The notes under the pieces: generated by a model
Told to the model about the DNA's origin: nothing
What the model saw: the letters and a program-made list of their open reading frames with translations, nothing else
The model's database searches: none
Program-made: the position numbers and the translations under genes
Shown: piece by piece, positions 50,807-55,357 of the stretch
How the letters are laid out: every line of letters begins with the position of its first letter
Numbering within the stretch: the stretch's first letter is position 1
Assembly: GCA_964291295.2 (NCBI GenBank)
Contig: OZ219754.1
Location: forward strand, 3,552,001 to 3,616,000
Length of the DNA: 64,000 bases
DNA from: an uncultured Candidatus Binatia bacterium
GTDB lineage: Bacteria > Desulfobacterota > Binatia > UBA9968 > JAJDTQ01
Direction: 5' to 3'

Positions 50807-51931
50807 ATGGCCAGGCAAGGCTTCAAGGCAATGGACTCCGACATGCACGTGTTCGAGCCTCACGATCTCTGGGAGCGATACATCGACCCGGAGTTCAGGG
50901 ACCGTGCGCCCAGGGGCCTGCAGCGCGATTTCCGCGACCTCGGCGTCGAGGTGGACGGCAAGATCCTTCCCGTGCCGAGGCGCCCGGAAAACCCGCACCT
51001 GAGGGACTACCGCCTGGCCACCCTCAAGGAAAAATACGGCGACGTGGCCGCGCGCAACTTCGACGGCGTCAGCCAGGTCATGGCCATGGACAAGGAAGGC
51101 CTCGACGTGGCGTTCCTGTTTCCCACGCGCGGGCTATTCGTCCTCGGCATCGACGGCCTCGACCCCGAACTGGCCGCGGCCATCTCCCGCGCCTACAACG
51201 ACTGGCTCCACGACTTTGCGCAGGAGGCTCCCGACCGCATGGCCTGCGTCGCCATGGTGCCGCCCCAGAACGTCGAGGCGGCCGTGGCCGAAACCAGACG
51301 GACGGTCACCGGAAAGGGATTCCGGGGCATCTTCATGCGCCCCAACCAGACCAACGGCAAGTGCTGGAGCGACCCGTACTACGATCCCCTGTGGGAGGTG
51401 TGCCAGAGCCTGAACGTGCCGGTGGGCTTCCATGAGGCCGGGCGCGTCCATCAGCCCCAGCCGGCCATCTCCCGATTCATCCCCTCCTTCACCATGTTCA
51501 ACACCCTGAGCTTCCCGATGGCCAACATGTTCGCATGCGCGGACATGATCTACGGCGGCGTCATGGAGCGCTTCCCCAGGCTCAGGGTGGCGTTCCTGGA
51601 AGGCAATTGTTCCTGGCTCCCATGGCTCCTGTACCGCATGGGGGACTACATGGAATCGGTGGGCAAGGCGGAGTACCCGGAGCTCCGGCTCGAGCCGCTG
51701 GAATATTTCCAGCGCCAGTGCTACGGGGCCGTCGAATGCGACGAGATCACCGCCAGGCACATGCCCGAGTACGGACTGGAGGACAATCTGGTGTTCTCCA
51801 CCGACTATCCGCACCTGGACGTCAAGTATCCCCACGCGCTGGACACGTTCCTGGAGATGCCGTTCTCCGAGGAGTCCAAGCGGAAATACCTCTGGGACAA
51901 CTGTGCCCGGCTGTACAACATGGGTCCGTAA
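50807..51931 (+). CDS. amidohydrolase family 2 protein
   Basis: DSDMHVFEP, RAYNDWL, VGFHE, RFP.LRVAFLE, FSTDYPH. Confidence 0.88.
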   Translation: MARQGFKAMDSDMHVFEPHDLWERYIDPEFRDRAPRGLQRDFRDLGVEVDGKILPVPRRPENPHLRDYRLATLKEKYGDVAARNFDGVSQVMAMDKEGLDVAFLFPTRGLFVLGIDGLDPELAAAISRAYNDWLHDFAQEAPDRMACVAMVPPQNVEAAVAETRRTVTGKGFRGIFMRPNQTNGKCWSDPYYDPLWEVCQSLNVPVGFHEAGRVHQPQPAISRFIPSFTMFNTLSFPMANMFACADMIYGGVMERFPRLRVAFLEGNCSWLPWLLYRMGDYMESVGKAEYPELRLEPLEYFQRQCYGAVECDEITARHMPEYGLEDNLVFSTDYPHLDVKYPHALDTFLEMPFSEESKRKYLWDNCARLYNMGP

Positions 51932-53051
51932 CACCCCGGTTTCCACATTCGCGCGGCGGGGCATCGTCGAAGGCTTCTTCGGTCCCCCGTGGAGCCGGGC
52001 CCACCGCGCGGCCATGTTCGCGTTTGGCGCCGCGCGCGGCATGAACACCTACCTCTACGCACCCAAGGACGACCCCTACCACCGGGAGCGCTGGCATCAG
52101 CCCTACCCGGAGACGGAATGGCGCGAACTCTGCGCGCTCATCGACGCGGCCCGGGGCTGCGGCATCGACTTCGTCTACGGCTTTCACCCGGGCCGGAACC
52201 TCCGCTTTGCCGCGGCGGAACCGGTGCGCCTTCTGCTCGACAAGGCGGCGCGTCTCCAGGATCGGGGCGTGCGCACCTTTGCGGTGCTGTTCGACGACAT
52301 TCCGTCGCGGCTGACGCACACCGAAGACAGGAAGAGGTTCGACGGCAGCCTGGCCAAGGCCGAGTCCCTGTGGCTCGAGGCGGTGCTGGAACAACAGCCC
52401 GCGGGCCGCGATGCGGCGTGGTGGTTCTGTCCCTCGTACTACACGCCCGACCCGCTGTTGGCCCAGACCTTCGGCGAGTTCGAGCCGGAGTTCCCCGAGA
52501 CCGTCGGGCGGTACCTGCCGGCGCCGGTCGACTGCTTATGGACCGGCCCCAAGGTGGTGCCGGAAAGCGTCACCCTGGAACACATGGAGGAGATCGGCCA
52601 ACGGATGGGTCACCGGCTGCTGCTCTGGGACAACTACCCGGTCAACGACCTGACCCGGGCCGACGCCATGCATATCGGCCCCCTCACCGGCCGAGACCCG
52701 CGGCTGCCGGAGCGGGTGCACGCGCACTTGGCCAACCCGCTCCTGCAGGAGCAGCTCAGCTTCATTCCCCTGGCCACCTGCTTCGACTATGCGCGGGAGC
52801 CCGGCACCTACGACCCGGAAACGAGTTGGGATGCGGCGGTGACGGAACGGTTCGGCGCGGCCCACCTGGAACACTGGCGGGCACTCCGGCGGTTCTGCGA
52901 ACAGGATGCCGGCGGCGGCGCGGCGAGGTGCCCCGAGTCCGAGCGGGGCACGCTGGAAGCGGCCCACGCCTACCTGCAGGCCCACCGCGGCGAAGCGTGG
53001 TGCCGTGAATTCGAGCCGTGGCGGGAGCGGCTGGAACAGGCGCTCCGGTAA
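51903..53051 (+). CDS. GH84 beta-N-acetylglucosaminidase (O-GlcNAcase) catalytic domain, no signal peptide
   Basis: RGIVEGFFGPPWS, MNTYLYAPKDDPYHR, catalytic LFDDI, FCPSYY, LWTGPKVV, WDNYPVND; the only in-frame start before the first motif is GTG 51903. Confidence 0.88.
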   Translation: MPGCTTWVRNTPVSTFARRGIVEGFFGPPWSRAHRAAMFAFGAARGMNTYLYAPKDDPYHRERWHQPYPETEWRELCALIDAARGCGIDFVYGFHPGRNLRFAAAEPVRLLLDKAARLQDRGVRTFAVLFDDIPSRLTHTEDRKRFDGSLAKAESLWLEAVLEQQPAGRDAAWWFCPSYYTPDPLLAQTFGEFEPEFPETVGRYLPAPVDCLWTGPKVVPESVTLEHMEEIGQRMGHRLLLWDNYPVNDLTRADAMHIGPLTGRDPRLPERVHAHLANPLLQEQLSFIPLATCFDYAREPGTYDPETSWDAAVTERFGAAHLEHWRALRRFCEQDAGGGAARCPESERGTLEAAHAYLQAHRGEAWCREFEPWRERLEQALR

Positions 53052-53055
53052 CATC

Positions 53056-54363: not shown

Positions 54364-54376
54364 ACTGGAAGACAAC

Positions 54377-55357
54377 TTGGCACGAAAGAACCCCGCGCCG
54401 ACCCGGGTTGCCCTCGTGACCCCCGCCGGGCCCACGCGGCGTACGGGCAACCGGATATCCGGAGGCAGGTGGGCGCGCATCCTCCGGGCCTCGGGACATC
54501 GGGTTGCAGCCCTGGACCGATATGAACGCGAGCCCTGCGACCTGCTGATCGCACTCCACGCCCGGCGCAGCCATGACTCCATCCGGCGGTTCCGCGACCG
54601 GCATCCCGGCAAGCCGCTGGTCGTGGTGTTGACCGGCACGGACCTCTACCGCGACATTCACGTGGACCCGGACTCCCGGGAATCCCTGGGGTTGGCCGAC
54701 CGCCTGGTGGTGCTGCAGCGCAAGGGGCTGGACGAACTCGCTCCGGGGCTGCGCGGGAAGACCCGGGTCATCTACCAGTCCGCCTCGGCCCGCCCCGGCC
54801 GCCCCGGCGACCCCGGCAAGCAGTTCACCGTGGCCGTGGTGGGCCACATGCGCCCGGAGAAGGACCCGTTCCGGACGGCCATGGCGGTGCGTTCATTGCC
54901 GCGCGCATCACGGGTCCGGGTGGTGCACATCGGCGCCGCCTTCAGCAACGGCATGGCCCGGCGCGCGGCGCGGGAGGCGGAACGCAATCCTCGCTACCGG
55001 TGGCTGGGCGAACTGCCCCACTGGAGGACGCGGCAACTCCTGGCCAACAGCCACCTGGCCTCCCTCACCTCGCGCATGGAGGGCAGCTCGAACGTCCTGT
55101 GCGAGGCGCTGGCCTCCAGCGTACCCGTGGCGGCCTCCAGGATCTCCGGACTGATGGGCACCCTGGGAGAAGATTTTCCGGGCTACTACGAACTCGGCGA
55201 CACCGCCGGCCTGAAGCGCCTGCTGCTCCGGGCCGAGAACGACCCGCCTTTCTACCAGAGCCTGGCGCGGCACTGCGCCGAGGTGGCGCCGCTGGTGAAT
55301 CCCGAGCGCGAGATCCGGACGTGGCAGGGATTGATCGATGAGCTTACGACGGGTTGA
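54377..55357 (+). CDS. senB: selenosugar synthase, GT-B glycosyltransferase
   Basis: VTPA...GNR...RWA, LIALHARRS, VLTGTDLYRDI, GHMRPEKDP, SRMEG..NV..EA; TTG start. Confidence 0.87.
   Translation: MARKNPAPTRVALVTPAGPTRRTGNRISGGRWARILRASGHRVAALDRYEREPCDLLIALHARRSHDSIRRFRDRHPGKPLVVVLTGTDLYRDIHVDPDSRESLGLADRLVVLQRKGLDELAPGLRGKTRVIYQSASARPGRPGDPGKQFTVAVVGHMRPEKDPFRTAMAVRSLPRASRVRVVHIGAAFSNGMARRAAREAERNPRYRWLGELPHWRTRQLLANSHLASLTSRMEGSSNVLCEALASSVPVAASRISGLMGTLGEDFPGYYELGDTAGLKRLLLRAENDPPFYQSLARHCAEVAPLVNPEREIRTWQGLIDELTTG

Follow-up and report, generated by a model that had tools for sequence, protein, structure and literature searches.

The route currently described for selenoneine, a selenium antioxidant, comprises three enzymes and a final spontaneous step, and glycoside hydrolases of family GH84 are known for removing O-linked N-acetylglucosamine (GlcNAc) from proteins and for degrading glycans. 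According to the available passages of the preprint on the senABC cluster of Variovorax paradoxus (Kayrouz et al.; bioRxiv 10.1101/2022.04.13.486033; hereafter the 2022 preprint), SenB makes selenosugars, SenA couples them to hercynine, and selenoneine arises through internal selenoxide elimination; when SenA acts in the presence of dithiothreitol (DTT), a hercynyl-SeGlcNAc selenoether is obtained as a reduced side product. Here, a stretch of 64,000 nucleotides from an uncultured Candidatus Binatia bacterium (contig OZ219754.1, positions 3,552,001 to 3,616,000; hereafter the window) was analyzed, in which a gene encoding a GH84 hydrolase lies immediately ahead of senA and senB. Sen clusters and the GH84 fold are already known; what appears to be new is that such a cluster has its own GH84 enzyme, from a distinct clade. 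On the best reading of the gene context and of the sequence comparisons, this enzyme would cleave β-Se-GlcNAc conjugates from which a selenolate can depart as a good leaving group. Taken as a whole, the locus is best explained, at somewhat under an even chance, by a cytoplasmic and probably catalytically competent β-N-acetylglucosaminidase that one bacterial order may have recruited into its selenoneine operon.

The association between GH84 and senAB, which the initial annotation had seen at this single locus, recurs across one order, on metagenome contigs and at one differently arranged locus (L141, below). In a tree of GH84 proteins, which included 80 loci kept from the contigs of species-representative genomes, all sen-linked GH84s fall into one strongly supported clade, comprising 43 loci and the window (SH-aLRT 100), on a stem of 1.36 changes per column. 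In 31 of the 43 clade loci, senA, senB or both follow GH84 directly; at seven, the contig stops within 3 kb, and five are unlinked; none of the 37 GH84 loci outside the clade is sen-linked. On metagenome contigs, from which 40 clade-type and 40 other GH84 loci were taken, 23 of the clade loci are linked, 13 have less than 1.5 kb of downstream sequence, one has less than 3 kb and three are unlinked, and sen linkage was found at 0 of the 40 other loci. A sample of 401 genomes from the window's class was also searched, with thresholds of E <= 1e-60 for SenB and E <= 1e-30 for GH84; SenB was found in 98 genomes and GH84 in 123, with 83 genomes having both. GH84 and senB share contig and strand in 70 of the 83 (three of them flagged unpublished), GH84 being upstream at a distance of 324-4488 nt; in the remaining 13 genomes the two genes occupy separate contigs, and of these genomes 10 are own-order assemblies of 190-870 contigs and three lie outside the order. 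Within the window's order (three families, own genome excluded), SenB is present in 88 of 94 genomes and GH84 in 81 of 94. Outside the order, GH84 occurs in 41 of 306 genomes, mostly as open reading frames (ORFs) of about 480-860 aa, and SenB occurs in 9 of 306, with no linked case. The ORF maps of the related loci came from a simple picker based on third-position G+C content (GC3), which misses or mis-starts some genes; for this reason, the linkage counts rest on tblastn and hidden Markov model (HMM) coordinates.

The surroundings of the linked genes vary from family to family, whereas the core itself is maintained. Upstream of GH84, related loci carry an amidohydrolase, LysE, a short FGE protein or an α/β hydrolase, and downstream a LysJ or major facilitator superfamily (MFS) gene. 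Some loci insert one to three genes between GH84 and senA, encoding a VOC protein, an α/β hydrolase that resembles meta-cleavage-product hydrolases, and an unnamed 321-aa ORF. The VOC protein and the α/β hydrolase were considered as universal partners of the system and rejected, since their best matches in the window's own genome lie elsewhere. In four clusters, namely G434, G500, G606 (equal to L017:10001-12380) and G709, senB comes directly after GH84, at a distance of 324-534 nt. The genomes concerned, three of family f113 and G709, still have SenA above the cut-off, approximately 0.8 Mb away in G606 and 1.4 Mb away in G434, or on another contig; the five handles checked correspond to four distinct genomes, as the L017 and G606 matches are identical. 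Two SenA copies are present in G709. Because GH84 stays with senB in these clusters, a wider specificity for Se-GlcNAc conjugates fits better than a specificity purely for the SenA product.

At the metagenome locus L141 (L141:4687-9131), the arrangement is different from that inherited in the window's order. Here, a clade GH84 lies 2.3 kb from a divergent senB, with an ArsR-HTH/rhodanese gene on the senB strand and a fatty-acid-hydroxylase-family gene on the GH84 strand between them, followed by a CobW-type GTPase gene. The GH84 of L141 is 88% identical to the GH84 of a Burkholderiales-labelled metagenome-assembled genome (MAG), the organism names of MAGs being depositors' labels that may be wrong, and its senB, which shares 51% identity with a senB above the cut-off, belongs to the Burkholderiales type; no SenA match was found in the 17 kb fetched.

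Many relatives of the window carry a larger island around these genes (for example, L038:2630-13630, L023:8246-16711 and L130:1832-13268). Its upstream part contains an OpuAC-permease fusion and an ABC ATPase (EgtUV-like), egtD, a fatty-acid-desaturase-like membrane protein and LysE, together with a 270-aa protein consisting only of an FGE-sulfatase domain and encoded divergently from GH84; from GH84 onwards, the VOC protein, the α/β hydrolase, senA, senB and a convergent MFS gene follow.

The GH84 protein of the window matches the PF07555 NAGidase profile (E 4.2e-79) over residues 19-330, covering 292 of the 295 profile positions. The AlphaFold2 model (mean pLDDT 93.7, pTM 0.91) contains eight barrel strands, the first at residues 18-22, and the protein comprises only the GH84 barrel and a C-terminal helical bundle. 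With the first strand at this position, there is no room for a signal peptide; the 17 residues ahead of it are polar. Both Asp residues of the catalytic pair, D131 and D132 (LFDDIP), are present without exception in two alignments, of 22 and 39 sequences. Fold, alignment and the position of strand 1 thus agree with the initial annotation, which had described a stand-alone GH84 domain with an intact Asp-Asp pair and no signal peptide. In a Foldseek search, the top matches are all GH84 enzymes, the best being the Thermobaculum terrenum O-GlcNAc hydrolase 5diy (TMq 0.84), which is also the best solved relative in a sequence search (E 8.9e-65). The residues K55, D56, D131, D132, Y180, W213, W242, N244, D249 and N278 are common to the clade and to all other GH84s; among them, the GlcNAc-binding residues K55, Y180, W242, N244, D249 and N278 also align with the CpOGA motifs. 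A NagJ-type assignment (equivalog NF041654) was rejected, with a score of 185.8 bits against a cut-off of 1000 and with the extra domains of the 732-position model being absent. One source labels many of the clade relatives "hyaluronoglucosaminidase".

A position was counted as clade-specific when 90% or more of the clade shares a residue that occurs in at most 10% of other GH84s, and 25 such positions were found. Many of them lie no more than four residues past the end of a barrel strand or in the loop that comes next (F26, G93/F94/H95, S178, F193/E194/F197, L250, L280/L281), and the clade loops also show Trp, Phe and Leu replacements after barrel strands. Position 26 is Phe in every clade row that has a residue there (44 alignment rows) and Tyr in 37 of 37 other GH84 rows. 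In the part of the published work available (PMC3476531), this Tyr (Y69 of human O-GlcNAcase, hOGA; Y189 of CpOGA) stacks on the glycopeptide backbone at the -1/-2 peptide bonds and may hydrogen-bond the catalytic general acid Asp175, and the hOGA Y69F mutant retains activity. His95 lies directly after strand 3, beside the strand bearing D131/D132, and is replaced by Ser in 92% of other GH84s. The combination of remodelled aglycone-side loops with a retained GlcNAc site is consistent with a new aglycone and is no proof of one. A protein O-GlcNAcase with a partner O-GlcNAc transferase (OGT) was considered as an assignment and set aside: the clade has Phe throughout in place of the peptide-stacking Tyr, and the own genome has no PF13844 match.

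In the window, an amidohydrolase gene, the GH84 gene, senA and senB form a tightly packed block, with a 29-nt overlap followed by gaps of 4 nt and 13 nt (Table 1). The 4 nt between the GH84 stop and the senA ATG read catc, and the stop and start coordinates confirm the spacing of 4 and 13 nt that the initial annotation had given for GH84-senA-senB. The 4-nt gap and the overlaps suggest co-translation. No plus-strand terminator-like site was found inside the block, and the promoter-like site ahead of it is the single match in 49400-55600, where shuffled sequences give 0.3 on average. The GTG at 51903 is the sole canonical in-frame start that precedes the first barrel strand of GH84, and the short N-terminal extension that it implies is also present in the closest relatives. 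The public gene call P0001, of 345 aa (90% of the ORF), starts at Met38, and consequently the conserved first barrel strand RRGIVEGFFG is cut off. SenA, with DinB_2 and FGE-sulfatase domains, scores 338.5 bits with the EgtB model, below the cut-off of 360, while both SenA and SenB exceed the cut-offs of their own equivalogs.

Table 1. Features of the window, with positions counted from its first nucleotide.
Feature	Position	Strand	Remarks
Promoter-like site TTGACA-17 nt-TACCAT	50697..50725	+	Upstream of the four-gene block; consensus match only
Amidohydro_2 (PF04909) gene	~50912..51931	+	118.8 bits; start is our choice, the first Met ahead of the domain; stop overlaps GH84 start by 29 nt
GH84 hydrolase, 382 aa	51903 (GTG)..53051 (TAA 53049-53051)	+	PF07555, 266.4 bits (cut-off 25)
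senA, selenoneine synthase, 435 aa	53056 (ATG)..54363 (TAG 54361-54363)	+	NF041186, 507.8 bits (cut-off 420)
senB, selenosugar synthase, 326 aa	54377 (TTG)..55357	+	TIGR04348, 383.7 bits (cut-off 300)
egtD-like histidine trimethylase (hercynine supply)	35375..36304	+	Start codon not fixed
TPR and SLT lytic transglycosylase gene	32610-35258	+	Next to the egtD-like gene
CinA-like protein	40719-41966	-	
AcrB-family efflux pump	42094-45360	-	
679-aa protein with ten RTX calcium-binding nonapeptide repeat matches	47507-49546	-	PF00353, 194.8 bits
LysJ-type aminotransferase gene	within 55382-59962	-	Convergent, after senB
Second Amidohydro_2 paralogue	60337-61380	-	

The remainder of the pathway was sought in the own genome, an assembly of 3.70 Mb in 3 contigs that is 99.13% complete. 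The window GH84 is its only PF07555 match. The egtD-like gene scores 287.2 bits with TIGR03438, slightly below the cut-off of 290.9, and 298.7 bits with PF10017; it lies 15.6 kb upstream of GH84 and is unlinked to it within the window. In 14 related loci, an egtD relative precedes GH84 by 0.2-5 kb, and in a further locus the distance is 8.5 kb. The sole selD above the cut-off (C1:690884-691807) is approximately 2.9 Mb from senAB and carries one in-frame TGA, in a KAAG*AAK stretch of the N-terminal region; this codon looks like one read as selenocysteine, which would give a selenocysteine-containing selenophosphate synthetase. None of the 43 clade loci has a SelD match, versus 21 of 40 senB loci from Burkholderiales. 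No senC is found in the window cluster, and the canonical senABC adjacency is therefore absent. SenA is the only full-length EgtB-like gene of the own genome, in which no other EgtB-like gene above the cut-off was found, and a search for a GT41 O-GlcNAc transferase (PF13844) gave no match in this genome, whereas the controls matched.

In the proposed mechanism, SenB would make 1-seleno-β-GlcNAc, SenA would couple it to hercynine to give the hercynyl-SeGlcNAc selenoxide, and GH84 would hydrolyze the β-Se-glycosidic bond of the conjugated Se-GlcNAc, so that release would not rely solely on spontaneous selenoxide elimination. The main candidate substrate would be the thiol-reduced and otherwise dead-end hercynyl-SeGlcNAc selenoether, possibly together with selenoxide, diselenide or selenosulfide forms, and the products would be selenoneine (or recoverable selenium) and GlcNAc, formed through the usual oxazoline intermediate. 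From free SeGlcNAc selenolate, selenide would have to depart, which is a poor leaving group and would make this a poor GH84 substrate; as free SeGlcNAc would thus be spared, co-expression with SenB need not create a futile cycle. Since GH84 and senB remain adjacent, the enzyme may accept other Se-GlcNAc conjugates as well. In its most specific form, the proposal is that the sen-linked GH84 clade may be the first dedicated Se-glycosidase, converting hercynyl-SeGlcNAc (selenoether and/or selenoxide) into selenoneine and GlcNAc in a four-enzyme pathway, with an O-GlcNAcase scaffold retuned to a betaine-selenoimidazole aglycone; this is put forward tentatively, as a possibility clearly short of an even chance.

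A number of findings weigh against this proposal. Among the five unlinked clade loci of the first set, four bear Burkholderiales or beta-proteobacterial labels and one is from Binatia (L047), whose genome, flagged unpublished, has senB elsewhere; the neighbors of the unlinked GH84s are heterogeneous, including a TauD-family dioxygenase, an MFS transporter, an M1 peptidase, a class-I Glu/Gln tRNA synthetase (PF00749) and aldehyde ferredoxin oxidoreductase (AFOR). The three unlinked clade loci of the metagenome set count in the same direction. The split clusters keep GH84 beside senB and not beside senA, indicating a tie that is not specific to the SenA product, and no fusion of GH84 with SenA or SenB of at least 670 aa was found at E <= 1e-60, which is weak evidence. 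As most linked cases lie within one order, they are relatives and not independent events. With regard to the chemistry, the in vitro selenoneine pathway requires no glycosidase and a release enzyme is argued to be unnecessary, as far as the passages of the 2022 preprint go, and the initial annotation had correctly stated that no glycosidase belongs to the described senABC pathway. In addition, alkyl S-GlcNAc on Cys is described, in the part of PMC10636738 available, as non-hydrolysable by hOGA; this resistance suggests that the cleavage of chalcogen glycosides depends on the leaving group. In the opposite direction, a 2005 paper, judging by its title, reports thioglycoside cleavage without general acid catalysis.

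The comparison with Burkholderiales, based on 381 genomes and on 40 fetched senB loci with 8 kb on either side, counts against a general role as well, because it shows that GH84 is lineage-specific and not a general part of sen clusters. SenB was found in 132 of the 381 genomes and a GH84 relative (E <= 1e-30) in two, one of which is the search center itself and the other 35% identical and unlinked. The 40 senB loci contain GH84 in 0 cases, SenA in 25, SelD in 21 and EgtD in 13. Of five Burkholderiales-labelled MAGs whose clade GH84 is unlinked, three have a senB at another site, a proportion not clearly above the 35% background (132 of 381). No substitute glycosidase was found among the recurring neighbors of Burkholderiales senB, scanned in 10 representatives only; these neighbors are lpxD/lpxB, a SpoU methylase, MotAB, FeoB, an HDOD protein and a pentapeptide-repeat protein. 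The suggestion of the initial annotation, that GH84 is a new pathway component with a small-molecule role, is hence well supported as a genomic inference by the linkage and the remodelled loops, but it applies to one lineage and not to sen clusters generally.

As a separate observation, ten of the 40 Burkholderiales senB loci are without SenA or SelD within 8 kb (L090, L093, L094, L097, L098, L099, L101, L104, L105 and L106), and most of them sit among housekeeping genes (lpxD/lpxB, SpoU methylase, MotAB, FeoB). Their SenB proteins are 48-54% identical to the SenB of the window, compared with 36-46% for canonical senA-senB-senC loci.

Four other explanations were weighed, which rank, in order of weight, as hydration of 2-acetamidoglucal (2-AG), editing of the selenosugar pool, ordinary GlcNAcase activity with inherited synteny, and a thiosugar route to ergothioneine. 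In the first of these, 2-AG from the spontaneous elimination would be protonated and hydrated via an oxazoline to GlcNAc, by which the sugar would be recycled and 2-AG removed; this idea was absent from the initial annotation and is chemically at least as natural as the substrate proposed there. Retaining glycosidases hydrate glycals, N-acetyl glycals bind hexosaminidases tightly, and 2-AG itself is a hexosaminidase inhibitor. 2-AG is the sugar released in the OvsA reaction, which is called analogous to that of SenA in the available part of the report (bioRxiv 10.1101/2024.04.10.588772), and as a by-product formed stoichiometrically it has to be dealt with in some way; a GH84 expressed together with the two Sen enzymes would fit, and the clade-specific His95 could be a new proton donor. 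However, 2-AG hydration by any GH84 is not documented in the literature found, recycling a sugar has little value when selenoneine is a trace metabolite, 2-AG also arises in many sen-bearing Burkholderiales that have no GH84, and a substrate without an aglycone requires neither the change of Tyr to Phe nor the other changes on the aglycone side, which leaves 2-AG hydration rather unlikely, though the weightiest of the four. An enzyme acting on the SenB product independently of SenA, and thus freeing selenium and GlcNAc from diselenide, selenosulfides or methylated or imported selenosugars, would explain why no feature is better conserved than the adjacency of GH84 and senB (all 70 same-contig cases), why senB directly follows GH84 with senA elsewhere in the four split clusters, and why L141 combines the two genes with no SenA match on the fragment fetched; senB in three of the five MAGs mentioned above also points this way, though with the background given there. 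Hydrolysis of on-pathway SeGlcNAc, however, would be a futile cycle within one operon, all split genomes checked retain SenA above the cut-off, and the split may simply stem from a rearrangement or two among related genomes. We consider such pool editing and selenium salvage unlikely; it overlaps with the best explanation and does not exclude it.

It is improbable that the window GH84 is an ordinary cytoplasmic GlcNAcase or protein O-GlcNAcase, acting for example in the turnover of cell wall or glycoconjugates, with its place beside the sen genes being inherited synteny. The identity of the closest solved relative, the O-GlcNAc hydrolase of Thermobaculum terrenum (5diy), speaks for it, as do the confinement of most linked cases to one order and the eight unlinked clade loci. 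It is opposed by the lack of a detectable GT41 transferase in the own genome, by the replacement of the peptide-stacking Tyr in every clade member, and by the status of this enzyme as the only GH84 of its genome. Moreover, the linkage survives variable flanks, inserted genes and the removal of senA, it recurs in a different arrangement in L141, and the 4-nt gap and overlaps suggest co-translation. Least probable is a thiosugar route, in which SenB and SenA would use a sulfur donor and GH84 would free ergothioneine by cleaving the C-S bond of a hercynyl-S-GlcNAc sulfoxide or thioether. In the passages of the 2022 preprint, SenA converts thioglucose to a stable sulfoxide that does not eliminate, as this route would demand, but thioglucose is a very poor substrate. 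The genome has egtD, no EgtB above the cut-off besides SenA, and no clustered senC, all of which would suit ergothioneine formation; on the other hand, its selD appears to contain selenocysteine and its SenA and SenB score above the equivalog cut-offs. We also know of no cellular thiophosphate donor for SenB. The reported resistance of thioether-linked GlcNAc on Cys to hOGA (PMC10636738) counts against this route, too.

If the cleavage of Se-GlcNAc conjugates proposed here is correct, the selenoneine pathway of one order would be independent of spontaneous elimination, and loss of selenium in a reduced dead-end product would be avoided; the Tyr-to-Phe and Ser-to-His changes and several new Trp and Phe residues would have adapted a scaffold formerly used for glycopeptides, and the clade would provide the first small-molecule, selenium-linked role for GH84. 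Bacteria of this order are widespread in soil and groundwater, and the conservation of GH84 across the order suggests enzymatic release, rescue or by-product handling in vivo. SeGlcNAc, the selenoether and 2-AG have already been made or observed by those who described the pathway, such a GH84 could raise selenoneine yields in engineered producers, and a defined role for the clade would correct the database name mentioned above. In the literature searched, no published link of selenoneine with GH84 or a glycosidase was found, and, by titles and the beginnings of abstracts, none of the papers pairing selenoneine with "glycoside hydrolase" appears to concern sen clusters. The passages of the 2022 preprint contain no mention of a glycosidase, hydrolase or acetylglucosaminidase, although its Supplementary Fig. 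1, with example sen clusters, could show a GH84; Table 1 of a 2026 survey of genes co-encoded with the synthases (PMC13674229) lists 30 families and no glycoside hydrolase, its Figure S1 lying beyond the part covered.

Among the neighboring genes, the amidohydrolase at the head of the block has PtmU3 as its best solved relative (6omp, E 9.1e-28), followed by ACMSD-type decarboxylases, and it adjoins GH84 only in the eight closest loci (L009-L016), at 88-92% identity; in these loci it is more conserved than GH84, SenA or SenB (73-85%). For the LysJ-type gene beyond senB, LysW-pathway models score highest but below their cut-offs, and the argD subfamily TIGR00707 is above its cut-off; further minus-strand ORFs follow it within 55382-59962. 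The RTX-repeat gene sits in a stretch of lower G+C content (0.549 at 47000-47999).

Compared with the senABC cluster of Variovorax paradoxus, as far as it is described in the passages available, the window shares SenA and SenB above their equivalog cut-offs and the presence of egtD-like and selD genes in the genome. It differs in that senC is unclustered, selD is distant and carries an in-frame TGA, and GH84 precedes senA; the related loci further add the EgtUV-like ABC transporter, LysE, the desaturase-like protein, the short FGE protein, the VOC protein, the α/β hydrolase and the MFS gene. The GH84 O-GlcNAcases TtOGA (5diy), CpOGA/NagJ (2cbi), BtGH84 (2cho) and hOGA (5m7r) have the same fold as the window enzyme (TMq 0.74-0.84) and share with it the Asp-Asp pair and the GlcNAc-binding residues, and TtOGA is, like the window GH84, a cytoplasmic single-domain protein. 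In contrast to these enzymes, the clade of the window stands apart on a long stem, has Phe for the peptide-stacking Tyr and His for the conserved Ser, and in the window is embedded in a small-molecule biosynthetic operon with no OGT partner. Conceptually, the role proposed here is that of EgtE, the C-S lyase of ergothioneine biosynthesis, in that a chalcogen-imidazole would be freed from its carrier after the synthase step; the fold and chemistry are unrelated, EgtE being a pyridoxal phosphate (PLP)-dependent β-lyase that acts on a cysteine sulfoxide, whereas the window GH84 would act by glycoside hydrolysis.

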